DNA of 64,000 nt from an uncultured bacterium (GCA_903858755.1 CAIOKC010000032.1:29930-93929); one strand, 5' to 3'. Shown: positions 3,148-16,754, counted from the stretch's first letter. Notes: a model not told the origin generated them from the sequence alone. Translations and numbers: made by a program.

Positions 3148-3338
3148 GCATACGTGTCGGCGCGGGATCACTGCGCATCGGCGATCGCATCCTCGTAGCG
3201 AGGATCGATGATTGACCAGCCGCTGCCTGGAGAGCTTCTTCCCGGCTGAGAAACATCCTGGCTTTGCGAGCAAATTCTGCCATTATTTCCTCCTTTGGCT
3301 CCTCACTGCAGACTACCTGCAATCGGAGAATTACGCAA

Positions 3339-4997
3339 TTACATCCTCTCCGGAGCGGGAATGCCGAGAATCCAAAGACCGTTTTTGAGCGTCTTCGCAA
3401 CAGCCGCAGTCAGTGCCACCTTGTGGTGAGCGCTAGTCGAACCATCGAGAATCTGCTCGCGCGCGTACCAGCTGTTGAATGCCGATGCGACTTCGAGGAG
3501 ATACGTGGTGAGAAGGTGCGGCTCGAGCTTGCTGGCCGCATATTCGACGATCTCAGGAAAACGATACAAAAGTCGCTCCAAATCGTTCGGTGCAGTGATA
3601 TGATATATCATATCAGTCAACCCTTGTGTTCTGGCTCTCTCGACGACGGCGTGCGCGCGTGCGTGCGCATACTGCAAGTACGGACCCGAATCTCCCTCGA
3701 GCGAAAGCGCGCGCTCGCGGTCGAACACGATGTCTTTGCCCGACGCTTGCTTGAGTATCTGGTATTTTATGGCGGCGACGGCGACATCTCGCGCGAGCGC
3801 GCTCGCATCGTCCGCGCGGCTCTCCGCCGCGCGCGCTTTCGCCGCTTCGATCAGCTCACGGAGGAGCGCCTCGCCAGTGATCACATCGCCAGTGCGCGAC
3901 GACATCTTCCCCGATGGAAGCCGCATCATGCCGTGAGAGACATGCCGTATGTTTGTAGCAATGTCTGGAAGCACCTTCCTCATCGCAGCGAGCACCACTT
4001 CGAAATACCCGGCTTGTTCGTGGGCTGTGATGGTGATCGAGGTGTCAAAGCCCCACACCTCCGATTTCATCTGCGCGAGCCCAAGATCCTTCGCCTCGTA
4101 CGTCGGGAGACCCTTGGACGTAATAAACACGCGGGTATGGAGACCGTCCTGCTCGCCCTTGTAGACCACAGCGCCATCGCTCTCTTCGAAAATCTCCGGG
4201 TGCGCTTTCACGAGCGCAAGACCCTTCGGCGCTGTCTCGCTCTCGAAAAAGTAGTGATCGAATTTCGTGCCGAGTATTTTATACAGCTCCTCAAAATGCT
4301 TGAGTGATGCCTCGCGCCCCGTCGCGTATAGCTTGTTTACCTTCTCGTCGGAGCGCTCGTATACTTGCGCATTGATCGCATCGATTTCCTCTTTCGCACC
4401 TGGGTCAGATTCGTACGCTTTTGAACCCTCCGCGTAGGCGCGCCCAAGCTCGGAAGCATCCTTCGGGTCGACACCGAGCTTCATCACGCCCCAGATCGAT
4501 TTCGCCACGTGCGGACCCACATCGCCTTGGTAATTCGCCCGCTTCACCTCAGCGCCGGAACACTGGAGAAGGCGCGAGATCGCCTCGCCTATCGCGTTCG
4601 ACATCAAGTGCCCGATGTGGAATTCTTTGAAAGGATTCGGGTCGGTATACTCGACCATTATTTTTTTACCACTTTGATTTGTATTCGCTCCCCACATGTC
4701 TTCAGAGCGCGCTTGTTCGAGCGAGGCGGCGAGTACTCCCGGTGCGAGATAGAAATTGATGAAGCCCGCGCCAGCGACCTCTATTTTCGCCACGCCATCG
4801 AGAGTACCCAGTGTCTCCACAAGCTTTTCCGCGAGTGCACGCGGCACCATTCCCGCCTGCTTCGCGTACTGAAGCGCCGCGCTCGTCGCATAGTCGCCAT
4901 TCCCTAATTCTGCTGGACGTTCGACGACTACGCTGCCAGCAGCGATGCCCACGCTCTGAAGCGCGACGATGAGTGCTTGTTCGAGTTTCTCCCGCAT
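3339..4997 (-). CDS. argS: Arginyl-tRNA synthetase
   Basis: 552-aa ORF with HIGH motif (FHIGHLMSNAIGE) and typical ArgRS anticodon-binding C-terminus. Confidence 0.95.
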   Translation of the reverse strand: MREKLEQALIVALQSVGIAAGSVVVERPAELGNGDYATSAALQYAKQAGMVPRALAEKLVETLGTLDGVAKIEVAGAGFINFYLAPGVLAASLEQARSEDMWGANTNQSGKKIMVEYTDPNPFKEFHIGHLMSNAIGEAISRLLQCSGAEVKRANYQGDVGPHVAKSIWGVMKLGVDPKDASELGRAYAEGSKAYESDPGAKEEIDAINAQVYERSDEKVNKLYATGREASLKHFEELYKILGTKFDHYFFESETAPKGLALVKAHPEIFEESDGAVVYKGEQDGLHTRVFITSKGLPTYEAKDLGLAQMKSEVWGFDTSITITAHEQAGYFEVVLAAMRKVLPDIATNIRHVSHGMMRLPSGKMSSRTGDVITGEALLRELIEAAKARAAESRADDASALARDVAVAAIKYQILKQASGKDIVFDRERALSLEGDSGPYLQYAHARAHAVVERARTQGLTDMIYHITAPNDLERLLYRFPEIVEYAASKLEPHLLTTYLLEVASAFNSWYAREQILDGSTSAHHKVALTAAVAKTLKNGLWILGIPAPERM

Positions 4998-5014
4998 GCG
5001 CTCATTCTACACAA

Positions 5015-5632
5015 TTACTTGAGAATTCGGCTTACCAGCGCCCAGACATCTTTGTGTACCGTGTCTATAGAGCGGTCTGCATTTACAAAATATATTTTTG
5101 AGCCCTTCGGTTTGAATTTCTTGAATCCGGCGCGCACCGCGCGATGATACGAAAGCGGTTTTTTGTCGTACGCATTCAGGTCCTTCGCGCGGTCGGTCAA
5201 GAGTCTTTCCCGAGCTTTCTTCGGATCAGAATCAAGGATGATATACGCGTCGGGCACCGCTTTTCTAAGCACTTCACCCGAGAAGGCGCGGATGAGCTTT
5301 GCGTACTCGGGGCGCTTCCCTGCGCATACCTGATACGCATACGTGGAGGAATCGAAACGATCGGAGATTGCCATACGCCCCTTTTTTAGCGCGGGCGCGA
5401 TTATCTCTTCCACGAGCGCCGCGCGCGATGCGAGAAAAAGAAAAAAGACCGCAAGCGGCGACAGCGTCTTGCTCCCAAGAAGGACCGCGCGAACAGCCTC
5501 CCCCGTCGGGGTGCCTCCGGGGTCGTGCGTGAAGACCGCTCTGCTGCCAAGCTTCTTCCGCAGAAGCTTCACCTGGGAGCTTTTGCCTGAGCCGTCGATG
5601 CCGTCGATGACGATGAATCTCGCTCTCCTCAT
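5015..5632 (-). CDS. tmk: Thymidylate kinase
   Basis: P-loop FIVIDGIDGSGKSSQ and dTMP-binding pattern. Start taken at the internal Met (MRRARFIV) so that it does not overlap rplK. Confidence 0.85.
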   Translation of the reverse strand: MRRARFIVIDGIDGSGKSSQVKLLRKKLGSRAVFTHDPGGTPTGEAVRAVLLGSKTLSPLAVFFLFLASRAALVEEIIAPALKKGRMAISDRFDSSTYAYQVCAGKRPEYAKLIRAFSGEVLRKAVPDAYIILDSDPKKARERLLTDRAKDLNAYDKKPLSYHRAVRAGFKKFKPKGSKIYFVNADRSIDTVHKDVWALVSRILK

Positions 5633-5663
5633 GGGCTGATTATGCCCAATTATTCCCAAATCG

Positions 5664-6089
5664 CTAGCGGCTCTCGACGTCCACCCCCATGCTGCGCGCC
5701 GTGCCCGCGATGATTTTCTTGGCTTGCTCAAGATCGTTGGCGTTCAAATCTTCCATCTTGTCTTTCGCGATATCCTCAAGCTGCTGCTTCGAGAGCTTGC
5801 CCACTTTGTTCTGCGGCTTGTCCGACCCCTTCTCGATGCCGAGCGCCTTCAAGACCATGCGGGAGGCAGGCGGCTTTTTCACGATGAAGGAGAACGTGCG
5901 ATCCTTATAGACCTGCATGACGACCGGCAAAATACTACCGATTCTATCTTTGGTCTGCGCGTTGAATTGATTGACGAATTCCCCGATATTGACGCCCGCA
6001 GGACCAAGCACCATACCCACCTGCGCAGCAGGAGTAGCGGTACCCCCCGGAAGCTGCAATTTGATTACTTTCGTTATTTCTTTTGCCAT
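5664..6089 (-). CDS. rplK: 50S ribosomal protein L11
   Basis: [43 protein letters not shown]... is a canonical L11 sequence. Confidence 0.9.
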
Positions 6090-6128
6090 ACGGAATCTGT
6101 GTCGGTGCACTATACCTGCAAGTCGACG

Positions 6129-7118
6129 TTATTTCAAGCTTTTGAGCTTCGTCAGGATTGGACGTGCCAGCTTCCGTGCATTCCCATGCGAGAGCAGCCC
6201 ACTGTATGATTCCAGCACCGGTTTGCTCTCGCTTCTCGCCGTGGCGCTCATCATCCGCCGCTTCGTCGCGGTGCGCAGCACGCGGTGGTCGGGAAAATGC
6301 ACCCAGCCCAGGAAATCGACACCGGATGCGAGCGTCTTGATGAACACCTTGTCGGGATGGAGTGTGAGTGCGAGTCGGCGCTCAAGAAATTCTGCAATCT
6401 TCGGGAGCAGGATATCAAGGTCCGACCTTGACGCAGAGAGGAAGACGAAATCATCCGCGTAGCGGACGTAGTGCTTCGCTTTCAGACGATGCTTCACGAA
6501 TTGGTCGAATTCATTCATGTAGATATTTACCAACAGTTGGCTCGTGAGGTTGCCGAGCGGGAGTCCCCTGTGCTGACACCGATTCCCCACGGTCGTGGTG
6601 AATCGGTGGCGGTGCGGGCTGCAGGAGCAGAAGCTCCCGATGATCTCCGAGAGGAGCGCGAGGATGCGCTCGTCTGCAATCGAGCGGCGCAGGATGTCGA
6701 GCAGAATAGATTGATCGATACTCGCGAAGAATTTCCTGATGTCGCACTTGAGTACCCAGCAGGTGCGCGTGTGATTGCGCGAGACTGTGTACGCAAAGCG
6801 GCGAAAGCGGTCCATTGCCTTGTGCGTACCCTTTCCTCTCCGGCATGAATACGAGTCTGCGATGAAGGCGCGATCGAAGAAGGGATAGAGCATGCGGTAT
6901 ATCGCATGGTGGAGCGCGAAGATGTTGTCCATGAGCGCGTGCTGGAATTCCTGTACATCGAGCTTCTTGCGCTTGCCCCGCACAAATTCTCGCCAAGCTT
7001 CGAGGAGATTTTCTACCGAGATGATATCCTCGTAGTTATGCGCGAAGCGGATGCGACCAATACGCCCCCCCGGCCGAGGACTGCTGCCTGTTTTGGAGCG
7101 CATCAAGACCGCGTACAT
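6129..7118 (-). CDS. Reverse transcriptase, diversity-generating retroelement (DGR) type
   Basis: 329 aa with RT motifs 1-7 and YADD. Motif 4 reads GLPLGNLTSQLLVNIY, the [I/L]GxxxSQ signature of DGR RTs, rather than the QGxxxSP of group II intron or retron RTs. No maturase/X domain. The N-terminus (NYEDIISVENLLEAWREFVRGKRKK) fits DGR RT starts. Confidence 0.75.
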   Translation of the reverse strand: MYAVLMRSKTGSSPRPGGRIGRIRFAHNYEDIISVENLLEAWREFVRGKRKKLDVQEFQHALMDNIFALHHAIYRMLYPFFDRAFIADSYSCRRGKGTHKAMDRFRRFAYTVSRNHTRTCWVLKCDIRKFFASIDQSILLDILRRSIADERILALLSEIIGSFCSCSPHRHRFTTTVGNRCQHRGLPLGNLTSQLLVNIYMNEFDQFVKHRLKAKHYVRYADDFVFLSASRSDLDILLPKIAEFLERRLALTLHPDKVFIKTLASGVDFLGWVHFPDHRVLRTATKRRMMSATARSESKPVLESYSGLLSHGNARKLARPILTKLKSLK

Positions 7119-7587
7119 TTTGTGGCATGAGTACCATTCTAAACTGCCAAAGACTCACCGATACACCGTTGGTGCAAAGATAGATTCGCTGTTCGCAGAG
7201 GTGATGGAGATGGTATCGGCGGCGGCATTTTTGCCGAAACAGGAGAAACTGTCCTATGTACGGACCGCGATACGAAAGTCTGACGCGCTGAAGCTCCTGC
7301 TTCTGATTCTGTGGGAAACGAAATCTCTTGATACGAAGAAATACGCCGCGCTATGCGCGCCACTCGATGAGGTGGGCAAGATGCTCGGCGGCTGGCAGGG
7401 GCAGCTTGTAAAAAACTCAGCCCCGCGCGAAGGCGCGGGGCTGAAGTGCAAAGGTCAAAGCGGCCAAGTGCAATACAAGTGTCAGAGAGTCGAAGACACT
7501 TCCGGGACGCCAGCGAACGACCAGTCGTCGTGCCAGTCGAGGCCGCCGCGGCTGACGTACACGCGGCGCGCGTCAGGCCAGCGGTAG
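7051..7587 (+). CDS. Four-helix-bundle protein of the Avd / 23S-rRNA-IVS family (putative DGR accessory variability determinant)
   Basis: LPKTHRYTVGAKIDSLFAEVMEMV...LKLLLLILWETKSLDTKKYAALCAPLDEVGKMLGGWQGQL fits the PF05635/Avd-like pattern (PKxxRYxL..Q..RAA ... EVGKMLxGL). The ORF has no stop until 7587. It reads through the convergent gene's terminator hairpin and overlaps the 3' end of the 7482-8126 gene on the opposite strand, so the true C-terminus is uncertain and it may be decayed. Confidence 0.5.
   Translation: MRPIRPPGRGLLPVLERIKTAYILWHEYHSKLPKTHRYTVGAKIDSLFAEVMEMVSAAAFLPKQEKLSYVRTAIRKSDALKLLLLILWETKSLDTKKYAALCAPLDEVGKMLGGWQGQLVKNSAPREGAGLKCKGQSGQVQYKCQRVEDTSGTPANDQSSCQSRPPRLTYTRRASGQR
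7417..7442 (-). terminator. GC-rich hairpin (11-bp stem, GAAG loop) followed by T6 on the minus strand. Intrinsic terminator of the 7482-8126 gene and possible DGR VR-proximal hairpin.
   Basis: cagccccgcgcgaaggcgcggggctg. On the minus strand the hairpin is followed by agtttttt. Confidence 0.5.
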
Positions 7588-8126
7588 AACGCGGCGAAGC
7601 AATATTTGCCGTCAGCGTCGATCCACTGACAAGCAAGCCCCTTCTCGTCGGCCGCGGCAGGATTTTTCTTACAGTAGTCCGCGAGAGCTTCCACGTCAAC
7701 GCGAAGGCCACGCTGACGATATTCCTCGGCAAGATCGTTGCAACTCAACACACCATCCTTGTACTTCGACTTGTCGACGTTGAAGATGTGGAGTCGGGCG
7801 CTAGACTTCGTACCGCGCGGCATTGTCGCGACAACCGCCGAATCGGAATAAATCTTCCGACCAGTATCAATCAATACCTGCTCGTTCGAGCGGGAACGGT
7901 CGATCGTGCGGACGGTGTGGACGATCGAGCCAACAGTCATCGCGATGTGCTTACGCAGGACACCGATCTGCTCGCCAAGATAGCGGTTCTGCCCGAGGAC
8001 CGCCTGCACTGCGGCCGAATCGCCGATTGCCGTGCGATGGGTCATGAGCAGTGCCCTGTAATGGGCGACGGCTTTGTCGACCTGCTTGAGAGTCATTGGG
8101 TTTGATGGGGTCATGGTCTGTGCCAT
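7482..8126 (-). CDS. Hypothetical cytoplasmic protein; candidate DGR target (variable) protein
   Basis: 214-aa ORF immediately upstream, in transcription order, of the Avd-like ORF and the RT. C-terminus ...RRVYVSRGGLDWHDDWSFAGVPEVSSTL loosely recalls RGGSW...-type DGR variable regions. No homologous template repeat found. Confidence 0.35.
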   Translation of the reverse strand: MAQTMTPSNPMTLKQVDKAVAHYRALLMTHRTAIGDSAAVQAVLGQNRYLGEQIGVLRKHIAMTVGSIVHTVRTIDRSRSNEQVLIDTGRKIYSDSAVVATMPRGTKSSARLHIFNVDKSKYKDGVLSCNDLAEEYRQRGLRVDVEALADYCKKNPAAADEKGLACQWIDADGKYCFAAFYRWPDARRVYVSRGGLDWHDDWSFAGVPEVSSTL

Positions 8127-8228
8127 GGCGTCATCTCCTTTTGTGAACGAGCTGTCCTGACGTCCGAGAATACGGAGTCATCAGCTAAATTGATTGTACC
8201 ACTCTTTATCAAAAAAGCAAGTCCACGA

Positions 8229-8252
8229 AAAAGCCCCTTTTTCGGGGTTTTT
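8229..8252. terminator. Short hairpin with A/T runs downstream of nusG (terminator-like)
   Basis: aaaaagcccc ttttc ggggttttt on the plus strand; the complement gives ccccgaaaaggggcttttt on the minus strand. Confidence 0.4.
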
Positions 8253-8274
8253 TCAGCCTTCGTGGCTTTTGTTT

Positions 8275-8820
8275 TTACACTCGCTGTACCTGGTCCGCTT
8301 CGAGCTCCACCGGTGTCTCGCGACCGAACATTGGTACGAGCACTTTAACTTTTCCGCGCTCTTCGTCAATCTCTCCCACCTTTCCTTCCAGATCTTTGAA
8401 CGGTCCGTCGATGATAACGACCGCATCGCCCTCCGAGAGATCGATCGCGTGGCGGACAGTATCTCCGAGCGCGCGCTTGAGGATCTTGTCTACCTCTTCC
8501 TGCGCGAGCGGCACCGCCTGATTCGCGGTACCCACAAACCCCGTCACCTGCGGAGTGTTTCTCACCACGCTCCACGCATCGTCGCTCGCGATCATGTCGA
8601 CAAGGACATAGCCGGGGAATATCTTTTCCTTGGTCTCGGTCTTGCGGCCGTTCTTGATTTTTATCTTCTTCTCGGTCGGGACGACGACTTGGAATATCTT
8701 CTCCCCCATGCCGAAAGAGTCGACGCGCTGCCTCAAATTGCGGGCGACCGCGTCCTCGTATCCGGAATACGTGTGCACCGCATACCACTTCCGCTCACTG
8801 CCGTGTGTCTGCTTCATATG
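8275..8820 (-). CDS. nusG: Transcription termination/antitermination factor NusG
   Basis: KWYAVHTYSGYEDAVARNLRQRV...IFPGYVLVDM... (NGN domain) plus C-terminal KOW (GDAVVIIDGPFKDLEGKVGEID). Confidence 0.9.
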   Translation of the reverse strand, partial: HMKQTHGSERKWYAVHTYSGYEDAVARNLRQRVDSFGMGEKIFQVVVPTEKKIKIKNGRKTETKEKIFPGYVLVDMIASDDAWSVVRNTPQVTGFVGTANQAVPLAQEEVDKILKRALGDTVRHAIDLSEGDAVVIIDGPFKDLEGKVGEIDEERGKVKVLVPMFGRETPVELEADQVQRV

Positions 8821-8821
8821 T

Positions 8822-9094
8822 TTATTGGGTCGTCGTGGTCGAGACCTGCTCGACGACAAACGGCGAATCGGAGATCGGCTGCTGCGTGATAGTGATCGGA
8901 TTTTCCTGCGGAAGCACGTTTAAGAAGCGCGCGAGCCCTGTCGTGAAATGAAAGTCGAAAAGCCCGAGGTAGAGCGCGACGAAGATTGAGACGAGTACCA
9001 CAAGAATCGTGTATACGATTGTCTGCACCTGGGTCGGCCACGCGACGTGGTGAAGCTCGCCGCGTGTGTCTTTGAGGTATTGAATGAATGACAT
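8822..9094 (-). CDS. secE: Preprotein translocase subunit SecE
   Basis: 90 aa, FIQYLKDTRGELHHVAWPTQVQTIVYTILVVLVSIFVALYLGLFD: SecE signature and single TM. Immediately upstream of nusG. Confidence 0.8.
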   Translation of the reverse strand: MSFIQYLKDTRGELHHVAWPTQVQTIVYTILVVLVSIFVALYLGLFDFHFTTGLARFLNVLPQENPITITQQPISDSPFVVEQVSTTTTQ

Positions 9095-9117
9095 ATCGAG
9101 GTGTAATGAGTCATTTT

Positions 9118-9138
9118 AAAAACGCCTCCCGGCGTTTG
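9118..9138 (-). terminator. Hairpin plus T-run on the minus strand (terminator downstream of the SIMPL-domain gene)
   Basis: aaaacgcctcccggcgttt; the minus strand reads aaacgccgggaggcgttttt. Confidence 0.45.
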
Positions 9139-9213
9139 CAAGAATAGTACTCGCTTGGGCAATACTGTCAAGCCGCCCCCCCCTGGGGGCGGCTTGATCT
9201 CTCCGCACAGTCC

Positions 9214-10029
9214 CTAGCGGATCTCGTAGGTTATATTCACGTTTGAGGTGATTTTGTTTTCGCCGGCGGGAAGCTCGGGAGATGCCTTCGTCGCAGAAGC
9301 GTCCATGCGCTCCGCGCCACCCATGCCGTATGCATAGGGCGCCGGGTACCCGCCCTCGTTTTCGTAGAATCCGACGACGCGTACAACCTCAACGCCCAGA
9401 GAGTCCGCGAGCGCCTCTGCTTTTTCTTTCGCCTGCGCAATCGCCTTGTCGCGAGCCTCCGCCTTGAGCGCATCTTCGTCGTCGATGGTAAACGAAAGCC
9501 CCGATACAGAGGATGCTCCAAGACCACCGACTCCCGAGAGCAAGTCTCCTGCTTTCTTCGTGTCGCGCACTTTTACGGTAAGGGTCTGACTTACTTGGAA
9601 GCCGCGGAGCTCCTGACGACCTCCGGGGCAGTAGCCGCCCGAGCACGCGACTTGAATGTAATCATATTGAGGGTACACGCTGTAGTCGGTGGTCTTGATG
9701 TCTTTTTCCTCGATGCCCTCTTTCTTCAAGTACGCGACGATGTCGTTGGATTTTTTAGTCGCGACATCTTGCGCGTCTGCGACTTGCTTCGCCTCTTCCT
9801 GGACGGTCACGCTGAATGTCGCGGTGTCCGGCACGGCAAATACCTCGCCTTCGCCTGATACGGTGATGCTGTTGGTCGCAGTGACTCCGCTTCCGATATA
9901 GCGATACCCTTTCAAAGCAGCAAGCGCCTCGACAAAAAGAAATACGGAAAGCGCGATGAGCGCTACCGCCGCGAATTTCCGCACTCGTTCCGTCGCACTG
10001 ATAATCTTGTCCGCCGCTTGTCCATCCAT
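9214..10029 (-). CDS. SIMPL-domain (DUF541) secreted protein
   Basis: N-terminal TM/signal; central and C-terminal pattern typical of the 26-kDa periplasmic immunogenic protein / SIMPL family (…VSQTLTVKVRD…GLSFTIDDEDALKAEARDKAIAQAKEKAEALA…). Confidence 0.65.
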   Translation of the reverse strand: MDGQAADKIISATERVRKFAAVALIALSVFLFVEALAALKGYRYIGSGVTATNSITVSGEGEVFAVPDTATFSVTVQEEAKQVADAQDVATKKSNDIVAYLKKEGIEEKDIKTTDYSVYPQYDYIQVACSGGYCPGGRQELRGFQVSQTLTVKVRDTKKAGDLLSGVGGLGASSVSGLSFTIDDEDALKAEARDKAIAQAKEKAEALADSLGVEVVRVVGFYENEGGYPAPYAYGMGGAERMDASATKASPELPAGENKITSNVNITYEIR

Positions 10030-10090
10030 ATGATGAATGTGTTATGAAATAAAAGCTTTCGCGATATACGACGAGTATACCACCCGCTTC

Positions 10091-10546
10091 TTACCGAGCG
10101 GCATGAATATTGAGACGACCCTTGTACTGCGCGAGAAAAAACGGCCATTGGGAGTGCATCGGCTCAGGAAATTGACCAAACGGAAACCATCTCACGTCAT
10201 CGAATTTGTGTGGCTCGCCATTTTGAACCTGGCTCCTGTCGACCAAGACCTTGTAGTCGAGACTGACCCAGTGCGTCTTATTCCCATCCTGCTCGCGAAA
10301 GACATCCCGGAAACCGAGAAACTCTACCTCAAGTGCATCCGCGCAGTACTCTTCTTTCACTTCCTTCCGAACCGTCTCTTCTCCTGTATGTCCGAACTCG
10401 ACACTACCTCCCCCGCAATCCCATCGTCCGTGCTCATCGCGGCAATTGACCCCACGCTTAGAGAGTACGACATTCCCCTCTCCGTCATGACAAAGGTACG
10501 ATGCGGTGACCCCGATGTAATCTATTCCTTTTCTGCTTATTTCCAT
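10091..10546 (-). CDS. NUDIX hydrolase
   Basis: Nudix-box-like GGGSVEFGHTGEETVRKEVKEEY. Start placed at the internal Met (MEISRKG). Confidence 0.6.
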   Translation of the reverse strand: MEISRKGIDYIGVTASYLCHDGEGNVVLSKRGVNCRDEHGRWDCGGGSVEFGHTGEETVRKEVKEEYCADALEVEFLGFRDVFREQDGNKTHWVSLDYKVLVDRSQVQNGEPHKFDDVRWFPFGQFPEPMHSQWPFFLAQYKGRLNIHAAR

Positions 10547-10762
10547 GGGCGATCGTCGGGAATCGAACCCGAATTGAGAGCTCCACAAGCTCCAGTGTTG
10601 ACCGTTACACCACGATCGCCATCAAACACAGATACTGTATAGCAGATTTGGGAGAGAGATGCGACTTCGTCGCGCACTATCGCCTCACCTGTTCGAGATT
10701 TGGCAATTTTTCTACAAGCACCACCGTAAAAAGAACGCGACCGATGATCTGCCCATGCTCTG

Positions 10763-11779
10763 TCAACACGTTGACCGCCATTCACCCGGACGCACATCCT
10801 CCTTGATCGAGTACCCTCTGTATCCCCCATCGCGACCGCCGAGAATCGGAAACTGCTCCGTATTCGTCGTCTGCCACGAGCCGAGCGCCGGATCATAGTA
10901 TTGCCACTCGTGGAAAATCGTCGTCGCAAGACCGGTGGGCGCAAAAATCGCGCTCCAGACGACCACTGTATCGATCGGAGCCTGGTGAAAGGTCTTGCTG
11001 TACCGTTCGAGGATATTCCACCACTCCCGCGGCTCTTCGGTGAGCACGTACGCGCCGTCGGAAAGACGCTGTACGGAGTGGAATACTCCCGCTTCTTTCA
11101 GCGCGAGCGGCAAGGGCGGAATGGCATTCGAGAAATACAGGACATTGAATATGACAAAGATGACGGCGATTGTGCGCGCGACTCGCGTGCGCTCTTTCCG
11201 CACCACCTCGGGGACAACGAAATACAAAACCTTCATGAAAAGCGTGACGGCGCAGAGGCTCACGATTCCGCTCACGACGAACATCCACGGACCGATAGTG
11301 CGGAAAACGACCGGTAGAAAAAATATGAAGAATGAGAAGAGGACGGTGAAATACAGACTGACCTGAAATGTAAAGCGCCGGTACAGACGGAGGAAGCGCT
11401 CGTTGCCGACGAGCAATACCGCGAGCGCCAGTATGAATATCCAGCTCACCGCATACGCCGCGCTCCTCGAATAGAGCGAGAGAAATCCGCTGAAAAGTCC
11501 TCCGAAAGAAAACTGCACGACGATGGGGATCGCGGGGGCAACGTTCAGAATCCACCGCGTCTTTACCCGGCCAGTCTCCAGCACATTGACCGCAATGATG
11601 CCAAGCGCGGCACATGCGAGATATGAAAAAAGAAGGAGGTTCGACGTCCAGAGATCTACGCGCCGGAGCAAGACGAGATTGTCTGCGATGAATCCCCCGA
11701 TCAGCGCGAGGGGTGAGATGTAGCGCTCGTACCAGTGGACAAGTTCTTCTACATTGTGCGGGAGTCGCGGGCGTGCCAT
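10763..11779 (-). CDS. Polytopic integral membrane protein (DUF2914-like)
   Basis: 338 aa, about 7 hydrophobic helices, then a soluble C-terminal domain. Confidence 0.5.
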   Translation of the reverse strand: MARPRLPHNVEELVHWYERYISPLALIGGFIADNLVLLRRVDLWTSNLLLFSYLACAALGIIAVNVLETGRVKTRWILNVAPAIPIVVQFSFGGLFSGFLSLYSRSAAYAVSWIFILALAVLLVGNERFLRLYRRFTFQVSLYFTVLFSFFIFFLPVVFRTIGPWMFVVSGIVSLCAVTLFMKVLYFVVPEVVRKERTRVARTIAVIFVIFNVLYFSNAIPPLPLALKEAGVFHSVQRLSDGAYVLTEEPREWWNILERYSKTFHQAPIDTVVVWSAIFAPTGLATTIFHEWQYYDPALGSWQTTNTEQFPILGGRDGGYRGYSIKEDVRPGEWRSTC

Positions 11780-11781
11780 AG

Positions 11782-12339
11782 CTACTGATACGAAGGGGGT
11801 TGTTCGGAGACGTGGGCGCGATGGTTTACGAAGCGCGTGAGCGCATAGAGAAGCGAGGAGAGCCGATTCGCATACGCGCGGCTCGAATCAGATATGGCGC
11901 GCTCACCGGATTCGTGCAGCGTGGCGACGCGGCGCTCCGCGCGGCGCGAGACCGCGCGCGCGATGTCGAGCCGCGCGGAGAGCTCGGTCGCACCCGGCAC
12001 CAGAAAGGTCTTGACCGGCGGCATCTCTGCTTCAATGCGGTGTATCAGCATCCCCATCGCCTCGACGCTCGAAAGTGGGATCGATTTCTCCGCGCCGGCG
12101 ACCTCCGCCTGAAGCGTGAAAAGGTGATCTTGCACGTCGTGCAAGACGAGCTTCATCCGTCTTCCCTGCACTTCAGTCCCTTCGCCACATTCCGCCTTGC
12201 ACCACCCGACAAGCGTATTTAATTCATCGAGCATGCCGAGACACTCGAAAATCGGCGAGGTCTTTGACACGCGCGCGCCGGGCGGCGAATCGAAAAGCTT
12301 CGACGTGCCGCCATCTCCTTTCCCGGTGAAAAAAGCCAT
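11782..12339 (-). CDS. ATP:cob(I)alamin adenosyltransferase, PduO/MMAB type
   Basis: MAFFTGKGDGGTSKLFDSPPGARVSKTSPIFECLGMLDELNTLVGW... with the TGDGGTT-like motif of PduO-type adenosyltransferases. Start at MAFFTG, 45 nt inside the track ORF. Confidence 0.8.
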   Translation of the reverse strand: MAFFTGKGDGGTSKLFDSPPGARVSKTSPIFECLGMLDELNTLVGWCKAECGEGTEVQGRRMKLVLHDVQDHLFTLQAEVAGAEKSIPLSSVEAMGMLIHRIEAEMPPVKTFLVPGATELSARLDIARAVSRRAERRVATLHESGERAISDSSRAYANRLSSLLYALTRFVNHRAHVSEQPPSYQ

Positions 12340-12356
12340 GACTCCATGATAGCAAA
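12259..12356. repeat. 98-bp direct repeat copy A (covers the 5' end and start codon of the adenosyltransferase gene)
   Basis: Identical to 14912-15009 except one synonymous G/A difference (12310 vs 14963). Confidence 0.9.
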
Positions 12357-12391
12357 TATCACTCGGTCCCACGTGCAGAGACACGACTCCG

Positions 12392-12784
12392 TTACGGCAG
12401 AACGATCGGAGCGTCTGGATCGTTTCCTCGAGTGACTCCCGAATACAAGACGTATAGAAGCGGTGTCACGGCGACGACGAAATAACTGACCCATACAAAG
12501 GGGGTGAAAAATATCGAAAAACCAATGGATGGCAAAAGAACGAGCGCATCGAGCACGATGTGCATCAGCCCAAATCCGATCCCGTATCCGATAGCAGCCA
12601 CGGCAGTCAGTGGACCCAAAAATCGCGTAGCAACAAGCACGAGCGCACACACGGTGATGTACCCCGCGACTTGCGCCCCTAAGCCGTACGAGAGTCCGTA
12701 GGTCGAAAGTACCGCCCATAGGAAGAAAACCCCCGAGTACGTGACGAAGCCCCACCACAGGACGAACGAATAGCGGATGGGCAT
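12392..12784 (-). CDS. Small 4-TM membrane protein (cargo of repeat-flanked segment)
   Basis: 130 aa, four hydrophobic helices, no recognisable family. Confidence 0.45.
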   Translation of the reverse strand: MPIRYSFVLWWGFVTYSGVFFLWAVLSTYGLSYGLGAQVAGYITVCALVLVATRFLGPLTAVAAIGYGIGFGLMHIVLDALVLLPSIGFSIFFTPFVWVSYFVVAVTPLLYVLYSGVTRGNDPDAPIVLP

Positions 12785-12817
12785 GCATTTCAGTGTATCA
12801 TGGTCAGATAAAGCTCC

Positions 12818-14920
12818 ATGAAACTGCCCGAACTGTCGTTCGCAGCGCTTGCATTAATGGTTATCACTGCACTTTTCAGCGCTACCACGGTCCTTGTACA
12901 TCCTTCCACGGAGGTTGCGCAAACAGTCAGAGCGACATCGCAAAAAGGCAATTGTAAGCTCGGGGACCTAGAATTCAGAGGGGCAAGCAGTATCGGGGAG
13001 CAAGAGTGCAAACGCGGCGCTGAGTATGAGATCATCGCACCAAAAAAGAAGGGGGATTTTGTCTACGATATAAAAACGAAAAAATGCCCACCATCCCCAC
13101 CACCTACCCCACGAGGCGTGAATCCTGAAGTGTGGAAGAAACAGTGGGAGGCAAAGCAGCCAGAAGGAGTGGTAAGTCTAAAGACACCGACCAACGGGAC
13201 GCTCATCGTGACCTGCGACAAGAAATTGGGCAGTTCGGGATCCTTCATGAAGGAGGTCGGCGACATATCGCGTGCCTCTTTGGGTGAGGCGCGAACTACA
13301 TCCCCCGAAAGTCCTCGGACGCCTTCGGCGCCAGCGCGTGAAAGCAGCTATGCTTTTCAAGATTCTTTCGATGAGCAACCCCCTTCTTCTTCGAACTCGG
13401 ACGGAACAGAAAAACCGAAGACGTCGCTTGAGGATTTGGCGAAAGAAATCGCACAAAAAAGAAACGACCTCAACAACAGCGACCCCGCAATCCAGCGCGC
13501 GGCGCAAGACTACTTGGCACTACAATCACGACTCGGAGAAGGGCGCTACATCGGCGTGGAAAGCAGCGAGCGGGACGGGACGCTCGGTGGAGCTATTCAA
13601 AAAGATGTGCGCGAAGCGTCGGCTCGTAATACAGCTCTGGCGATTTCAGACACATTTGCCAATGCGGACGGAGTCTACGTGACCAACGTCGAGCAAAAAG
13701 GTTTGGCGACGCGAGTCCTCGATAGAGCGACCGGGAGCGAGACCTTTTACAGCAATGTTACCGGGAGACCCTTTCTGGAGGTGGACGGCAACGCTCTTTC
13801 TCTTATCTCTGCCGACGGATCAGTGTACCCCGTGGCGCCTGACGGAGAGTGGCAAAACAAACTCGGGACGCTGGACAAAACAGAATACGATGTCTTTGCA
13901 GATAATTACCTCTCCCCGAGAGAAATGCCTGTTCAATCTTTCAAATACGATCCACCAGTGGCGGCCTGGACAGATGATACTGGCGCTGAAATACCGCCAG
14001 CGACTTCTGAATACCCGAATGGTCGCGTGACTATCACTGACAGTGACGGGAACAAAAAGGTTATTCCGGCAGATGAATACTGGGCGGTAATTGAAGCGGG
14101 TAAACGCGTGTACGATACCGACCAACTCGCACGAGAAATAAATCAATGGACACACGGCAAGATCCTTCTCTCGCCGCCAGAAGCATTCCCTTCTTCGAAG
14201 GGCGGCTTTTTTGCTGAAGGCGGCAATGTACCTGCAAGTTCGCTCACGCCACAGTCTATCGGGCAATATGCGAGTGCAATGGAGAAAATGTACGACGTAT
14301 ACAAACAAATGCCGCCGGAACTATGGGCAAACGAGGGTATACAACCTACTGATGTATATACTTTTGCACAAGATCCTGCCGCACCAAAAGTCAGAGCGGC
14401 GGGAATCGCATATCTTGGTGGGGGCAGTCAGTGGTCAAATCCCGACGCACACGACGTATACATGACAACTGGTCACGAGCTTGGGCATACGTTGGGAAAC
14501 GTCTTCCCGAGTGATCAGCAGTGGGGCTCAAGTGTGTATGGCGAATCGTGGCAGCGTGCATACGGTGGGAAAGATTCAGTTGAGGCGTACGCTGCCGGTA
14601 AACTTGGGTACGACAGAGCTCCGGGTTATGCGACGACATACGGCTTTGCGGGCGGTGTGCGTGAAGATCAGGCGGAGATATTTGGTGCCATGCTCACGAA
14701 TTATCCGGCGGTACAACACGCCGCTGCAAGCGATCCTGCGTTGAATCAAAAAATGCAGATGGTGCAGGATTCGTTTTCCGCAGCAACAGGTGGCGTTATG
14801 AATCAGAATTACTGGAACAACATGAAAGTTCTCGACTCAGACTTCTTCCTCGCACAATCAAACCCTAACTTTTTGACAACACTATACCGAGTACTCGGAG
14901 CCAAGCGTGCGGGTCTTTGA
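12818..14920 (+). CDS. Secreted/membrane-anchored protein with HExxH zinc-metallopeptidase motif
   Basis: 700 aa; N-terminal TM/signal (MKLPELSFAALALMVITALF); Pro/Ser-rich linker; HELGH motif near the C-terminus (DVYMTTGHELGHTLGN). The stop codon lies inside direct-repeat copy B. Confidence 0.55.
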   Translation: MKLPELSFAALALMVITALFSATTVLVHPSTEVAQTVRATSQKGNCKLGDLEFRGASSIGEQECKRGAEYEIIAPKKKGDFVYDIKTKKCPPSPPPTPRGVNPEVWKKQWEAKQPEGVVSLKTPTNGTLIVTCDKKLGSSGSFMKEVGDISRASLGEARTTSPESPRTPSAPARESSYAFQDSFDEQPPSSSNSDGTEKPKTSLEDLAKEIAQKRNDLNNSDPAIQRAAQDYLALQSRLGEGRYIGVESSERDGTLGGAIQKDVREASARNTALAISDTFANADGVYVTNVEQKGLATRVLDRATGSETFYSNVTGRPFLEVDGNALSLISADGSVYPVAPDGEWQNKLGTLDKTEYDVFADNYLSPREMPVQSFKYDPPVAAWTDDTGAEIPPATSEYPNGRVTITDSDGNKKVIPADEYWAVIEAGKRVYDTDQLAREINQWTHGKILLSPPEAFPSSKGGFFAEGGNVPASSLTPQSIGQYASAMEKMYDVYKQMPPELWANEGIQPTDVYTFAQDPAAPKVRAAGIAYLGGGSQWSNPDAHDVYMTTGHELGHTLGNVFPSDQQWGSSVYGESWQRAYGGKDSVEAYAAGKLGYDRAPGYATTYGFAGGVREDQAEIFGAMLTNYPAVQHAAASDPALNQKMQMVQDSFSAATGGVMNQNYWNNMKVLDSDFFLAQSNPNFLTTLYRVLGAKRAGL

Positions 14921-15009
14921 CACGCGCGCGCCGGGCGGCGAATCGAAAAGCTTCGACGTGCCACCATCTCCTTTCCCGGTGAAAAAAGCCATGACTCCAT
15001 GATAGCAAA
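14912..15009. repeat. 98-bp direct repeat copy B
   Basis: See copy A. Lies 59 bp from tRNA-Leu. Confidence 0.9.
14913..14991 (-). pseudogene. Orphan 5' fragment (first ~27 codons) of the PduO-type adenosyltransferase gene
   Basis: Encodes MAFFTGKGDGGTSKLFDSPPGARVSKT, then diverges and stops. The full gene is at 11782-12339. Confidence 0.6.
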
Positions 15010-15068
15010 AGTCCGCGCGAGTCGCCGAGCGAAGCGAGGCGGCCTCATCCGACTTGCAATTTCCTTTC

Positions 15069-15155
15069 TGGTGCGCAGGGGGAGACTCGAACTCCCATGC
15101 CCTTGCGGGCGCTACCACCTCAAGGTAGTACGTCTACCAATTTCGCCACCTGCGC
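15069..15155 (-). tRNA. tRNA-Leu (anticodon GAG), type II with long variable arm; CCA encoded
   Basis: Manual cloverleaf: acceptor gcgcagg/cctgcgc, anticodon stem ctacc/ggtag, loop ttGAGgt, variable arm cgcccgcaagggcatg, T-loop ttcgagt. Confidence 0.8.
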
Positions 15156-15211: not shown

Positions 15212-15676
15212 CTATTTCGTCTCCTCGACCGGCGCCGTCATCTCAGCGACGATCTCTTCTTTTTGTGCTTCCGTCTCCTCCGCAAAATCAGCAGGGACTC
15301 CCTGCATGTCGTTGGATGAGATATTCATCATGCGAGTGCGGCGGAGCTGGCGGCGCGCTTCGCGCGCCACTTTGTCGCGTATGTAGTAAAGCTTGGCGCG
15401 GCGGACGCGAGCGCGCTTCACGACTTCGATACTCTCTACCATGGGAGAATAGAGCGGGAAAATCTTCTCGACTCCGACGCCGCTTGCGACGCGGCGCACG
15501 GTGAAAGTCGCACCCGCTTCGGTGCCGTGCTTGCGCGCGAGGACCAGCCCCTCAAAAGCCTGCAAGCGCTGCTTGCCCTTTTCGATGATTTTCTGCATGA
15601 CACGCACCGTATCCCCCGGTCGGAGGTCGAGGTTCTTGCGAGAATCCATCTGTATCGGTGATACTTTGATCGCCAT
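15212..15676 (-). CDS. rplS: 50S ribosomal protein L19 (with C-terminal acidic extension)
   Basis: [51 protein letters not shown]... is a canonical L19. Confidence 0.9.
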
Positions 15677-15920
15677 ATGCGCGGGCACTATACCACCTGG
15701 AGTCTAATAAAACAATATTCGCCGGGTGTCTCTATTGTACCAAGCTAGAACCTATTTTCAAACGCGTTGACTTCCCACGCGCAGAGCGCGTGGTGGCTTT
15801 GACCTGAATCGTACGCTCCACGAACACCGCCCCCCGCCTCGCGGACTCGGCGGCAACCCCGAAAAGAAAAACGCTCCATGCATTGGTTGTTAATTGGACA
15901 AACCTTCTTTTGTCGCGCAT

Positions 15921-15947
15921 ATGCAACACATATTAGGTGTTGCATTT
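15921..15947. promoter_or_regulatory. 9-bp-arm inverted repeat (atgcaacac-N7-gtgttgcat) upstream of TA operon; candidate antitoxin operator
   Basis: Perfect inverted repeat, about 40 bp upstream of an extended -10 (tggtatact at 15988-15996) and the antitoxin ATG at 16003. Confidence 0.35.
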
Positions 15948-16002
15948 AGAATTAGAACTCGCGTGGAATAGCCCGCTTTGTCCCTTATGGTATACTGCTC
16001 GT

Positions 16003-16185
16003 ATGAACAAGACAGGCAAGAAAAATGTATCCCTGAGCGACCTCTACCAAGAGGTTAGGGCTCTTCGTCGTGATATGTCGGTGTTCATGCCCACCGAATC
16101 TTTTGACGACTATAAAAATAAGAAGGAGCTCGTGGCCGCACACCGTGATACGCGTAAGGAAATAGCTCGCACTAGGCGAGCATAA
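16003..16185 (+). CDS. Small putative antitoxin (partner of downstream RelE/ParE-like toxin)
   Basis: 60-aa basic/acidic ORF ending 2 nt before the toxin ORF: MNKTGKKNVSLSDLYQEVRALRRDMSVFMP... Confidence 0.4.
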   Translation: MNKTGKKNVSLSDLYQEVRALRRDMSVFMPTESFDDYKNKKELVAAHRDTRKEIARTRRA

Positions 16186-16187
16186 CC

Positions 16188-16442
16188 ATGCGGATTGTCC
16201 GCACGAAAAAGTTTGAGAGGATGCTTGGGCGCTTGCCTGCATCTGTGCAAAAAGTATATCGCGGGCAAGAAAATCTCCTTCAGGAAAACCCGCGAGATTC
16301 TCGTCTTCATCTTAAGAAACTACAAGGGATCGAGGATACATACTCCTTCCGCATTACGCGCTCTTACCGGGCGCTTTTCATATGGGAAGATAACACGGCT
16401 TGGCTTTTTGCCATCGGAGATCGAAAAGATATTTACAACTGA
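16188..16442 (+). CDS. RelE/ParE-family type II toxin
   Basis: 84 aa; ...LHLKKLQGIEDTYSFRITRSYRALFIWEDNTAWLFAIGDRKDIY matches the RelE/ParE C-terminal pattern (LkkLkG..d.yRiRigdYRiif....). Confidence 0.65.
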   Translation: MRIVRTKKFERMLGRLPASVQKVYRGQENLLQENPRDSRLHLKKLQGIEDTYSFRITRSYRALFIWEDNTAWLFAIGDRKDIYN

Positions 16443-16445
16443 TAT

Positions 16446-16754
16446 ATGGAATTTGAGACACTGGATCAAATACTCGCCAAAAGGAAAGAGGTTGAACAGG
16501 AGCTAATTGAATTTCTAAAGGAGACGGAGAGCGATTTTACCTTAGAGGATATTCAGCAAGTTATTTTCGAAGAAGAGAACACCGACGACTTAACCGATGT
16601 TATAGCCATGTTTGATACGGGGCACGGCCAGTTGGAATTGAGTGCCATTCTCGAGACGGTCAACGACGCGTGGAATTATTTTCCACATAAAATTTTGGGA
16701 GGGATCTCTCCCGCTGAAATGATACTAAATCACAAACGAAAATCGCGCAGTTGA
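16446..16754 (+). CDS. Acidic hypothetical protein in low-GC islet
   Basis: 102 aa, strongly acidic, in the AT-rich segment adjacent to the TA pair and tRNA genes. Confidence 0.35.
   Translation: MEFETLDQILAKRKEVEQELIEFLKETESDFTLEDIQQVIFEEENTDDLTDVIAMFDTGHGQLELSAILETVNDAWNYFPHKILGGISPAEMILNHKRKSRS

Follow-up and report, generated by a model that had tools for sequence, protein, structure and literature searches.

Genomic islets linked to tRNA genes hold variable accessory cargo between conserved anchors beside a tRNA gene, and ultrasmall bacteria of the candidate phyla carry few classical mobile elements. Among integrative systems, a similar layout is found in the dusA-specific islands and prophages, which insert into the 5' end of a conserved gene, supply a replacement 5' end, leave a remnant of the original and are flanked by direct repeats (Farrugia et al. 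2015; PMC4482086). These islands range from kilobases to more than 100 kb and encode their own dedicated tyrosine integrase beside the att site, a semi-conserved 21-bp sequence at one fixed position (PMC4482086). Insertions flanked by duplications have also been obtained in E. coli, where single crossovers of recircularised fragments leave duplications of 109-950 bp of the homologous segment on either side of the insert, and in homology-facilitated illegitimate recombination (HFIR), which pairs one homologous with one illegitimate end, the joints show 0-10 bp of microhomology (PMC3240628).

Here, we analyzed a 64,000-nucleotide stretch of DNA from an uncultured bacterium (the window), derived from a Kaiserbacteria-like genome, in which two genes lie between two copies of the 5' end of a PduO-type adenosyltransferase gene, pduO (Table 1). 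Like the dusA islands, the window contains both a remnant of the target gene, in its native context (copy B), and a functional replacement 5' end (copy A). Unlike them, it has no integrase, the duplicated segment is a 98-bp near-perfect copy that includes the promoter, and the cargo measures 2.55 kb; moreover, the end points of pduO relics vary between lineages, in contrast to the fixed att of the dusA islands. The locus resembles the products of Campbell-type single crossover and HFIR in that neither requires an element-encoded recombinase (PMC3240628). However, those are laboratory events of very low frequency, whereas the event in the window is natural and fixed in the population, and while HFIR proper produces deletions, this insertion keeps the interrupted gene whole through a second copy of its promoter and start (PMC3240628). 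As in tRNA-linked islets, the cargo at the tRNA-Leu/pduO slot varies among relatives, but the repeat is the 5' end of the neighboring protein gene and not the 3' end of the tRNA. The locus resembles a scar left by recombination in a habitually variable slot, and not a new self-mobile element.

Table 1. Features of the pduO locus, in window coordinates.
Feature	Position	Strand	Basis or size
tRNA-His(GTG), conserved right-hand backbone marker	10547..10619	-	
DUF2914 membrane protein gene, conserved downstream backbone	10763..11779	-	Pfam
Intact PduO-type ATP:cob(I)alamin adenosyltransferase gene	11782..12339	-	185 aa
Repeat copy A: working pduO promoter (predicted), start codon, first 27 codons	12259..12356	-	
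Cargo-side junction, from the stop codon of the four-TM gene to copy A	12357..12391	-	35 nt
Cargo gene 2: 130-aa membrane protein, about four TM segments	12392..12784	-	Hydropathy
Divergent intergenic region of the cargo pair	12785..12817	.	33 nt
Cargo gene 1: 700-aa protein, signal/anchor segment, invariant HELGH	12818..14920	+	ORF, translation
Repeat copy B: stranded original pduO promoter (predicted), start, 27 codons	14912..15009	-	
Native spacer, tRNA-Leu to copy B	15010..15068	-	59 nt
tRNA-Leu(GAG), conserved left anchor of the variable slot	15069..15155	-	ARAGORN
rplS (ribosomal protein L19), conserved upstream backbone	15212..15688	-	Pfam Ribosomal_L19, 9.5e-36

A repeat search showed that the two copies are identical at 97 of 98 positions, the single mismatch being G at 12310 and A at 14963 (GGC versus GGT, both Gly). 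No other direct or inverted repeat in the window reaches 35 nt, and a 51-nt piece of the repeat occurs exactly twice, against 0 expected in shuffled sequences. Read on the minus strand, the repeat comprises 17 nt of upstream sequence followed by the ATG and 27 codons, MAFFTGKGDGGTSKLFDSPPGARVSKT, and spans -17 to +81 relative to pduO. Copy A continues into the full gene, whose product matches Pfam Cob_adeno_trans (1e-38) and TIGR00636 (1.6e-38), while copy B, which lies 59 nt from tRNA-Leu(GAG), belongs to an orphan ORF of 36 codons (14992 to 14882). A first-pass annotation, made from the sequence alone, had described the repeats in these terms, including the one synonymous G/A change, the 27 pduO codons, the different fates of the two copies and the distance to the tRNA, and its description is accurate.

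The repeat also includes a putative promoter conserved across the clade. The motif TGnTAnnnT is located at exactly -15 of pduO in 53 of 78 distinct relatives (1.6 expected), and our promoter call is based on this conservation. The extended -10 element of copy A lies at 12346-12354 and that of copy B, TGCTATCAT, at 14999-15007, with the ATG of copy B at 14990-14992. For lack of a -35 match, the pduO promoter went uncalled in a sigma-70 scan. The pduO start in the repeat is predicted to be a minimal extended -10 promoter with a leaderless-type start. Folded as DNA, the repeat shows no unusual secondary structure or hairpin (z = 0.26), which leaves a cruciform or break hot spot at this position unsupported. 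An Rfam search at gathering thresholds of the window and five relatives returned tRNAs and RNase P only, with no match to the repeat or to the small structured inserts.

The cargo is made up of two intact divergent genes, and here too the earlier description holds, from the 33-bp gap between them to the four or so hydrophobic spans of one product and the HELGH motif of the other, secreted one. The 700-aa protein carries HELGH at residue 553 and has a single N-terminal hydrophobic span. As previously noted, the stop codon of its gene (14918-14920) falls within copy B, which provides the last two codons together with the stop. Homologues of 700-702 aa share this end point to within 1-3 residues. 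The family is small; distant members match Peptidase_Mx1 weakly and below threshold, and the window's protein shows weak similarity to an MMP zinc site (E about 0.07). It is probably a secreted zincin-type metalloprotease. A structure prediction from a 3-sequence alignment was unusable (pLDDT 35.7).

The 130-aa protein, the conserved partner of the 700-aa gene product, has no Pfam or NCBIfam match and shares 49-50% identity with its counterparts in L005 and L008. The same gene pair is found in four other genomic contexts, and the divergent pairing is retained in L005-L008 and L096-L099. The predicted metalloprotease-like protein and its membrane partner may take part in interactions with a host or with competitors. 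The cargo is compositionally foreign: the two genes rank 2 and 4 of 47 for atypical codon usage, and GC3 of the 700-aa gene is 0.52 compared with about 0.70 for the genes of the window. PADLOC found no defense system in the cargo. In an alignment with relatives, nothing upstream of their pduO genes was homologous to the 35-nt junction beside copy A.

To place the insertion, we compared about 160 related loci, in which the ancestral order is L19, tRNA-Leu(GAG), pduO, DUF2914 and tRNA-His. PduO homologues occur in Kaiserbacteria/Paceibacterota at identities of 87% and below, rplS is syntenic across 80 related loci, and tRNA-Leu(GAG) comes after L19 in nearly all relatives. The gap between tRNA-Leu and pduO measures anything from 0 to about 3.5 kb and is occupied by unrelated cargo; pduO follows tRNA-Leu in dozens of related genomes, at distances down to 0-11 nt. 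None of the about 160 loci has the window's cassette in this slot, and the insertion is therefore derived and recent. This agrees with the first-pass reading of an insertion, the site being empty in relatives. The homology of copy B to the sequence upstream of pduO in L091, the closest relative, carries on into the last ~10 nt of the native spacer (GCGGACT...), whereas the flank of copy A shows no such match; this places copy B in the ancestral context. The insertion cuts a conserved gene, and the duplicated minimal promoter and start would rescue it.

Older pduO 5' relics with differing end points are present in three to four other lineages. In L015 the relic extends to about +24, in L177 to about +92 and in L172 to at least +160, compared with +81 in the window, and this spread argues against a single fixed crossover or att site. 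In L177, tRNA-Leu is followed by a decayed promoter and about 30 codons, 3.3 kb of recombinase-free cargo and an intact pduO. The L172 relic retains at least 50 codons, followed by about 1 kb of cargo; it differs from the intact copy at 18 places, 11 of them synonymous, and contains a stop and a frameshift besides. L015 and L128 keep an 8-codon relic with 7 differences, all synonymous. The synonymous excess suggests that the copies diverged as working genes in separate lineages and were later joined by recombination. The decayed occurrence of the same architecture in other lineages points to the tRNA-Leu/pduO junction as a natural docking site.

Our preferred explanation, put forward tentatively, is that the locus is a recent insertion scar left by host recombination, which placed a foreign two-gene cassette in the variable tRNA-Leu(GAG)/pduO slot. 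The outer junction falls within pduO, past codon 27, and the inner end of the insert bears a second copy of pduO from -17 to +81. This second copy leaves pduO intact and presumably expressed, with the original 5' end as a dead stub by tRNA-Leu; pduO would survive because the promoter motif and the start lie inside the repeat. The donor, the recombination pathway and the reversibility are inferred. Most likely, the incoming DNA came from a close relative in which the cassette already lay just upstream of pduO, with one homologous joint, in pduO or downstream of it, and one illegitimate joint at the extreme end of the 700-aa gene. An equivalent route would be a RecA-mediated single crossover of a circularised fragment in which the cassette was joined to about 98 bp from the 5' end of pduO. 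Neither route would involve a recombinase encoded by an element, and the two repeats could recombine later to delete the cassette precisely.

The duplication of a stretch of recipient homology, with no element-encoded recombinase, fits a host-mediated one-ended or single-crossover product. The two copies in the window differ by one synonymous SNP; the older cases in L015 and L172 show a synonymous excess. Natural competence with homologous integration has been demonstrated for Saccharibacteria, not for Kaiserbacteria (PMC10633639/PMC10187176). Among genes with a bearing on DNA uptake and RecA-type recombination, the window showed pilus/T2SSE, RuvC and VirB4/TraG-like genes only. On the other side, classical HFIR usually deletes recipient DNA and does not duplicate it (PMC3240628), and at the illegitimate joint the microhomology is imperfect and spans only about 3 nt (GCG). 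With a conspecific donor, recombination would normally be expected through homology on both sides, so the event calls for a fragment whose end chanced to coincide with the stop codon of the 700-aa gene. Our searches found no conspecific donor carrying the cassette without the duplication and no circular junction, and no empty allele was found among the public contigs with the species' exact L19 or PduO. An exact search with a 46-mer of the repeat gave 0 matches in the JGI metagenome and IMG/VR collections. If host recombination produced the scar, the locus would be a concrete instance, open to testing, of gene gain without a recombinase in Patescibacteria. It is in any event a very recent and clean case of accessory gene gain in ultrasmall candidate-phyla bacteria.

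A long target-site duplication is a less likely but serious alternative. Foreign linear DNA would have been ligated or copied into a staggered break with nicks 98 nt apart, in the part of pduO near its promoter, followed by fill-in, or a template switch during replication would have led onto foreign DNA and back to a point 98 nt behind; the two repeat copies would then derive from one chromosome. The target-primed duplication that the first-pass annotation had offered as a second option is possible, but nothing specific supports it. The 97/98 identity of the copies fits an intragenomic target duplication as well as it fits host recombination, and we count this against the latter. Furthermore, each copy runs unbroken into native sequence on one side, and one event would suffice instead of two, again with no recombinase. 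Relatives also carry target duplications of 26-86 nt, mostly 100% identical, around small inserts in the same slot; for the small tRNA-linked inserts in relatives, RNAalifold yielded no usable consensus. However, the relic differences in L015 and L172 are mainly synonymous, which copying from the same chromosome does not predict, and the ends of the cargo lack transposon-like features. To our knowledge, no bacterial mechanism regularly yields target duplications of 98 bp.

We consider it unlikely that the locus is an integrase-mediated island of the dusA type, with the 98-bp repeats as attL and attR and an integrase that was lost or acted in trans, and host-mediated integration is favored over it. 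The first-pass annotation had likened the pattern to site-specific integration with attL/attR-like ends. The insertion, its geometry and the replacement 5' end all stand, and the last two are shared with the dusA islands (PMC4482086); a self-mobile, site-specific element is unsupported, given the lack of a recombinase, terminal inverted repeats and a fixed site. The site adjoins a tRNA gene, and the slot in relatives also shows tRNA 3'-end duplications typical of integrase activity; the repeat itself, however, excludes the tRNA. As the first-pass annotation had stated, neither cargo protein matches an integrase or recombinase family (Pfam, NCBIfam, PADLOC), and none occurs among the best 25 of 48 Pfam families in the other ORFs of the window. 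Both cargo genes are intact; 35 nt separate the pair from copy A, while on the other side the stop codon falls within copy B, which leaves no space for a recombinase or for att arms, and no pseudogene remnant is present. No terminal inverted repeats were found at the cargo ends. The comparison with mobile elements envisaged earlier was likewise negative, with no match for the 700-aa protein among phage, plasmid or IMG/VR viral contigs.

The history of the cassette in other genomes bears on the same question. In the two other contexts examined (L005 and L008), the homologous cassettes have no flanking repeats, and the variable relic end points described above also speak against an integrase. 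In L096/L097, by contrast, the homologous cassette adjoins a large serine recombinase, which leaves room for a recombinase in the wider history of the cassette. We know of no serine recombinase that creates long direct repeats.

A bolder extension, which we regard as improbable, is that the pduO promoter and 5' end act as a portable homology handle for integrase-free cassette exchange in Kaiserbacteria/Paceibacteria. Cargo between two such handles would loop out as a circle by host recombination and, after transfer or uptake, re-insert homologously wherever a conserved pduO start exists, each insertion remaking a working pduO and leaving a relic. Such exchange would account for the recurrence of relics, for the nested copies in L172 and for cargo that varies so strongly at this one slot.

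It is very improbable that the locus is an old fixed duplication kept near-identical by gene conversion or by selection, for instance as an antisense regulator of the 700-aa gene. The full minimal promoter predicted in the orphan copy does point into the 3' end of that gene, and every contig sampled from the species has the arrangement. However, the cargo codon usage has not ameliorated, and relics decay in other lineages. The first-pass annotation had named the same arrangement with diverged repeats in relatives as the sign of an old duplication; no relative shares the arrangement, the closest being 87% identical in PduO.

An assembly artefact, in which strain variants were joined through the shared 98-nt sequence, is barely credible: the source is a metagenome-assembled contig, and related contigs of other assemblies end inside the cargo (window 12584-12593 and 13198-13226), but both junctions recur, at 99.7-100% identity, in contigs of separate assemblies and samples, so that the chimeric join that the first-pass annotation had considered does not hold. 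Contigs L003 and L004 span the 700-aa gene, copy B, tRNA-Leu and L19, and L001 and L002 span the N-terminal part of the 700-aa gene, the four-TM gene, copy A, pduO and DUF2914. Supporting contigs include k=141 MEGAHIT contigs, with k exceeding the 98-nt repeat, which cross the whole repeat with its flanks and keep the copy-specific SNP. A chimeric join would also not yield the junction between the end of the 700-aa gene and codon 27.

Other candidates were discarded on simple grounds. A transposon or IS is rejected by the absence of a transposase and terminal inverted repeats and by the 98-bp duplication, and a tRNA-targeting integrative element by the position of the repeat, which begins 59 nt past tRNA-Leu and has no sequence in common with it. 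A reverse transcriptase gene lies 5 kb away (6129-7118), but no A-biased repeat pair typical of a diversity-generating retroelement is present in 3000-11000, and the 98-nt pair has a single G/A difference and sits at the 5' end of a gene. The DUF2914 gene is truncated in the window by a 1-nt deletion at 10776/10777, and its protein is 367 aa long in other assemblies.

A foreign two-gene cassette has recently been inserted into a conserved, habitually variable slot, and the insertion was made harmless by a duplicated promoter and start of pduO, the PduO-type ATP:cob(I)alamin adenosyltransferase gene. A repeat search of the window identified one pair of 98-nt direct repeats with a single mismatch, R_A on the pduO side and R_B on the tRNA-Leu side, and no other repeat of 35 nt or more anywhere in the 64-kb sequence. 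A 51-nt stretch of the repeat has two exact occurrences, with a chance expectation of none. Read on the minus strand, the repeat consists of 17 nt of upstream sequence followed by the ATG and 27 codons, MAFFTGKGDGGTSKLFDSPPGARVSKT. The mismatch, G at 12310 versus A at 14963, gives GGC in R_A and GGT in R_B, both Gly. The first-pass annotation had described copies identical (97 of 98 positions) save for this synonymous change and containing the pduO start codon and first 27 codons, one continuing into the full gene and the other orphaned near tRNA-Leu(GAG), with two divergent genes for a 4-TM and a HELGH protein between them and the stop codon of the latter within R_B; all of this was confirmed.

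The motif TGnTAnnnT is present in 56 of 78 distinct pduO upstream regions and lies exactly at -15 from the ATG in 53 of them, compared with 1.6 in shuffled controls. We take it to be an extended -10 element, its predicted hexamer ending 6 nt before the start codon, and this promoter geometry implies a putatively leaderless or near-leaderless pduO mRNA. Since the repeat starts at -17, the entire minimal promoter lies inside it. The duplication thus supplied the interrupted pduO with a promoter, a start codon and 27 codons, which would allow an insertion within a conserved gene to persist. The orphan promoter in R_B is predicted to remain active, with antisense transcripts running into the 700-aa gene at its 3' end.

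PduO homologues are labelled Kaiserbacteria, Paceibacterota or Patescibacteria. Related loci were collected through an L19 (rplS) scan of a genome collection (80 loci) and a PduO-profile scan of metagenomes (another 80), and both sets were annotated with tblastn and ARAGORN. The order PilM ... tRNA-Arg(TCT), tRNA-Val(TAC), L19, tRNA-Leu(GAG), pduO, DUF2914, tRNA-His(GTG) ... SIMPL is widely conserved and forms the backbone of the window. The empty site proposed earlier as a check, tRNA-Leu followed by pduO without the cassette, was found in relatives. The gap between them measures 0-11 nt in L017, L042, L086 and L126, a few hundred nt in others, 2.1 kb in L011 and 3.5 kb in L177, with gap cargo that differs and is unrelated between genomes. 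In L093 (PduO 81%), the gene order from RuvX to SIMPL is that of the window and the gap is just 289 nt. The closest relative, L091 (PduO 87%, DUF2914 88%), begins within the 3' end of tRNA-Leu; the sequence upstream of its pduO (GCGAGCGGACTTTTTGCTATGATG) aligns to R_B plus the tRNA-side flank of R_B (TCGCGCGGACTTTTGCTATCATG), while the R_A flank is unrelated. R_B therefore represents the ancestral 5' end at its native position, R_A is continuous with the body of the original gene, and the sequence between the two copies is all inserted.

Close relatives of the 700-aa protein number just two (58% and 46% identity) in a set of 5.8 billion clusters, and a profile search of 1.8 billion representatives gave 91 matches. 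The conserved portion of the family is the C-terminal HExxH region; Peptidase_Mx1 matches are weak and occur in distant members, and the zinc-site region is weakly similar to MMPs (E about 0.07). With low confidence, the protein may be a secreted or anchored zincin-like protease; its structure prediction was unusable (pLDDT 35.7). Homologues are 700-702 aa long and their C-termini fall within 1-3 residues of the window protein's end, which places the junction at the very end of the gene, with R_B supplying the final Gly-Leu-stop. The 700-aa gene is consistently paired with the divergent 4TM gene (49-50% identity), and the pair recurs in four further, differing genomic contexts (L005-7, L008, L096-98 and L099), with no flanking repeats in L005 and L008, the two contexts examined. 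The codon-usage comparison suggested earlier showed the cargo to be atypical: its genes rank second and fourth of 47 window genes in atypical synonymous codon use, and GC3 is 0.52 in the 700-aa gene versus ~0.70 in typical genes. The cargo is a recent acquisition of foreign origin, but it bears no mark of self-mobility. Searches with the 700-aa protein gave no phage, plasmid or IMG/VR match, the cargo termini have no terminal inverted repeats, and non-coding sequence is limited to 35 nt at a single end. As previously noted, the cargo contains no integrase or recombinase.

Using each relative's own pduO start as the query against its upstream region, we found older instances of the duplicated 5' end, or relics, at three sets of loci (L177, L172/L175 and L015/L146/L128). 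In L177 the relic is followed by ~3.3 kb of ordinary genes without a recombinase (VTT/DedA, cupin, AdoMet decarboxylase, methyltransferase) and then by intact pduO. In L172/L175 it is followed by ~1 kb including an AbiEii toxin gene and then by intact pduO, and an extra 29-nt perfect copy of the promoter and start lies further upstream. The relics end at different points (~+24, +81, +92 and at least +160), evidence against a site-specific crossover. In L015 and L172, the excess of synonymous differences indicates that the two copies had evolved apart as functional genes, each in its own lineage, before they were joined; judged from these differences, either the intact 5' end or the relic would have been imported.

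Features of the window and of related loci
Locus	Position	Strand	Feature	Details
Window	12259-12356	- (reading)	R_A	runs on into 185-aa PduO-type adenosyltransferase
Window	14912-15009	- (reading)	R_B	59 nt beyond tRNA-Leu(GAG); enters 36-codon dead-end ORF
Window	12346-12354; 14999-15007		Promoter motif	TGCTATCAT
Window		-	4TM protein, 130 aa	about four TM segments; 33 nt from 700-aa gene, divergent
Window		+	700-aa protein	N-terminal hydrophobic segment; HELGH at residue 553; stop codon inside R_B
L177	~-55 to ~+92 of pduO		pduO relic after tRNA-Leu	decayed; ~80% identity, indel and stop
L172/L175			pduO relic, at least 50 codons	11/18 differences from intact copy synonymous; stop and frameshift
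L015/L146/L128			Promoter and 8 codons, 85-nt insert with hairpin, real start	7/7 differences between 24-nt copies synonymous
L011; L177	8542-9225; 658-1326		LAGLIDADG gene	examples
L016; L044; L071	4244-4472; 5376-5661; 4103-4390		Direct repeats, 26-86 nt
L045; L074; L012	5220-5370; 4285-4437; 12102-12386		Direct repeats, 26-86 nt
L096; L097	603-3016; 145-2558		2.4-kb segment beside cassette	opposite orientation
L008	8-140; 1626-1758		Perfect inverted repeat, 133 nt	near contig end, upstream of homologous cassette
Window	6129-7118	-	Reverse transcriptase, 329 aa	RVT_1 2.6e-24; YADD motif
Window	7482-8126		214-aa ORF	neighbours reverse transcriptase
Window	10763-11779		DUF2914 gene	one G of GGG run missing at 10776/10777
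Window	15937-16754	+	L19 to tRNA-Val stretch	GC 0.44-0.49; three small ORFs; weak ParE-like toxin match at 16188-16442
Window	52197-54140	-	VirB4/TraG-like ATPase	P-loop_TraG 1.7e-23
Window	55321-56073	-	250-aa protein	weak IS200-type Y1 transposase match (1.3e-5)

Every model has to yield native flank, repeat, cargo, repeat, native flank. We tentatively prefer host recombination acting on incoming DNA. In one version, a homologous joint in or beyond pduO would be combined with an illegitimate joint at the fragment end; in another, a circularised fragment carrying the cargo and ~98 bp of the pduO 5' end would integrate by a single crossover. This model needs no element functions and is consistent both with relic ends that vary and with the orthologue-like divergence seen in L015 and L172. 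In E. coli, a substrate with homology on one side gave mostly single-crossover recombinants, which carried duplications of 109-950 bp; at true HFIR joints, microhomology was 0-10 bp and the outcome was a deletion (PMC3240628). Natural competence with homologous integration has been demonstrated in Saccharibacteria (PMC10633639). However, no donor strain was observed, the 97/98 identity can do without a donor, and a conspecific donor would normally recombine through two-sided homology.

Considered alone, the window is most simply read as an insertion with a 98-bp target duplication, arising through a staggered break and fill-in or through template switching. This is possible but less probable than host recombination. 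It has no established bacterial mechanism and leaves the older relic cases unexplained. An integrase-borne island of the dusA type (PMC4482086) would share the replacement-5'-end logic of the insert, but it is improbable, failing on integrase presence, fixed att position and room for att arms. The attL/attR-like pattern proposed in the first-pass annotation is apt as geometry; a mobile element that has a recombinase of its own, or one dedicated to it, is unsupported, given the absence of a recombinase and the variable relic ends. Comparative and assembly data contradict an old conserved duplication, which is very improbable: relatives do not share the arrangement, and none of the ~160 related loci carries the 4TM/700-aa pair in the tRNA-Leu/pduO gap.

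The same data leave almost no room for an assembly artefact. Same-species contigs from other assemblies and samples, found by exact-protein look-ups, match the window at 99.7-100% identity, and they reproduce the junctions, contrary to a chimera at the repeat. L003 and L004 cover part of the 4TM gene, the 700-aa gene, R_B, tRNA-Leu, L19 and beyond; L001 and L002 cover the 700-aa N-terminus, the 4TM gene, R_A, pduO and DUF2914. Two of the four were built at k=141, longer than the repeat, and each repeat copy keeps its own SNP allele, so the repeat-flanked structure is real. Every contig with this species' exact L19 or PduO is in the filled state, and no empty allele was seen among them. The event belongs with phenomena already known, the gain of genes by recombination at a hot spot and the rescue of a gene's 5' end, and its significance is mainly for Patescibacteria genome dynamics. 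We consider it quite doubtful that the pduO start is used repeatedly as a homology handle for exchanging cassettes without an integrase.

Several further features were observed in related loci. A LAGLIDADG homing-endonuclease-like gene (~220 aa; 48-100% identity) lies between L19 and tRNA-Leu(GAG), 4-40 nt upstream of the tRNA, in ~35 of ~160 loci (about one fifth), and is absent from the window; the enzyme, if active, could introduce breaks that add to the recombination-proneness of the locus. Six direct-repeat pairs (four at 100% identity, the others at 97% and 92%) begin in the 3' end of tRNA-Leu(GAG), or tRNA-His in L012, take in the downstream hairpin and enclose inserts of 93-144 nt. Every insert contains an inverted partial tRNA 3'-end copy and additional hairpins; the inserts gave no Rfam match and no usable consensus fold, and could represent footprints of integration, miniature elements or a tRNA-like RNA not recognised so far. 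At six loci (L012, L109, L131, L167, L124 and L015), ~100 nt upstream of pduO, a conserved promoter, ATG and 4-8 codons precede a hairpin whose closing stem is invariant (CCCCRGTA...TACGGGG) and whose inner stem covaries (e.g. GAGC/GCTC vs CAGC/GCTG), with UUCG or GAA-type loops and the motif CAGGCRGGnAAAG, after which a second complete pduO start follows. This may be a regulatory RNA of leader or uORF type that arose from a small insertion.

The L096, L097 and L098 genomes encode a 655-aa homologue of the cargo protein. The 2.4-kb segment of L096 and L097, missing from L098, carries genes for a large serine recombinase and for a protein of 172 aa, has inverted repeats of ~150 nt at its bounds, and looks like an invertible or mobile recombinase module. 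The L008 inverted repeat represents either the end of an insertion sequence or a fold-back in the assembly.

Elsewhere in the window, the best NCBIfam match of the reverse transcriptase is a group II intron RT, below cut-off, and defence-RT models also matched; a search of 3000-11000 for a template/variable repeat pair of DGR type gave none, and the adjacent ORF had no family match. The stretch between L19 and tRNA-Val is probably an acquired toxin-antitoxin islet. The VirB4/TraG-like and Y1 genes, ~40 kb from the cargo, are the only recombinase- or transposase-type families among the scanned window ORFs (best 25 of 48 families). The G missing from the DUF2914 gene is present in L001 and L002; its loss shortens the protein to 338 aa in the window, versus 367 aa in other assemblies and relatives, and reflects either a frameshift in this strain or a mistake in assembly. 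In the pilus-gene region, near window position ~18378, L003 has 16 nt that the window lacks. The contigs L001 and L002 come from different samples and both stop at window position 10202 within the NUDIX gene, a hint of strain variation there.
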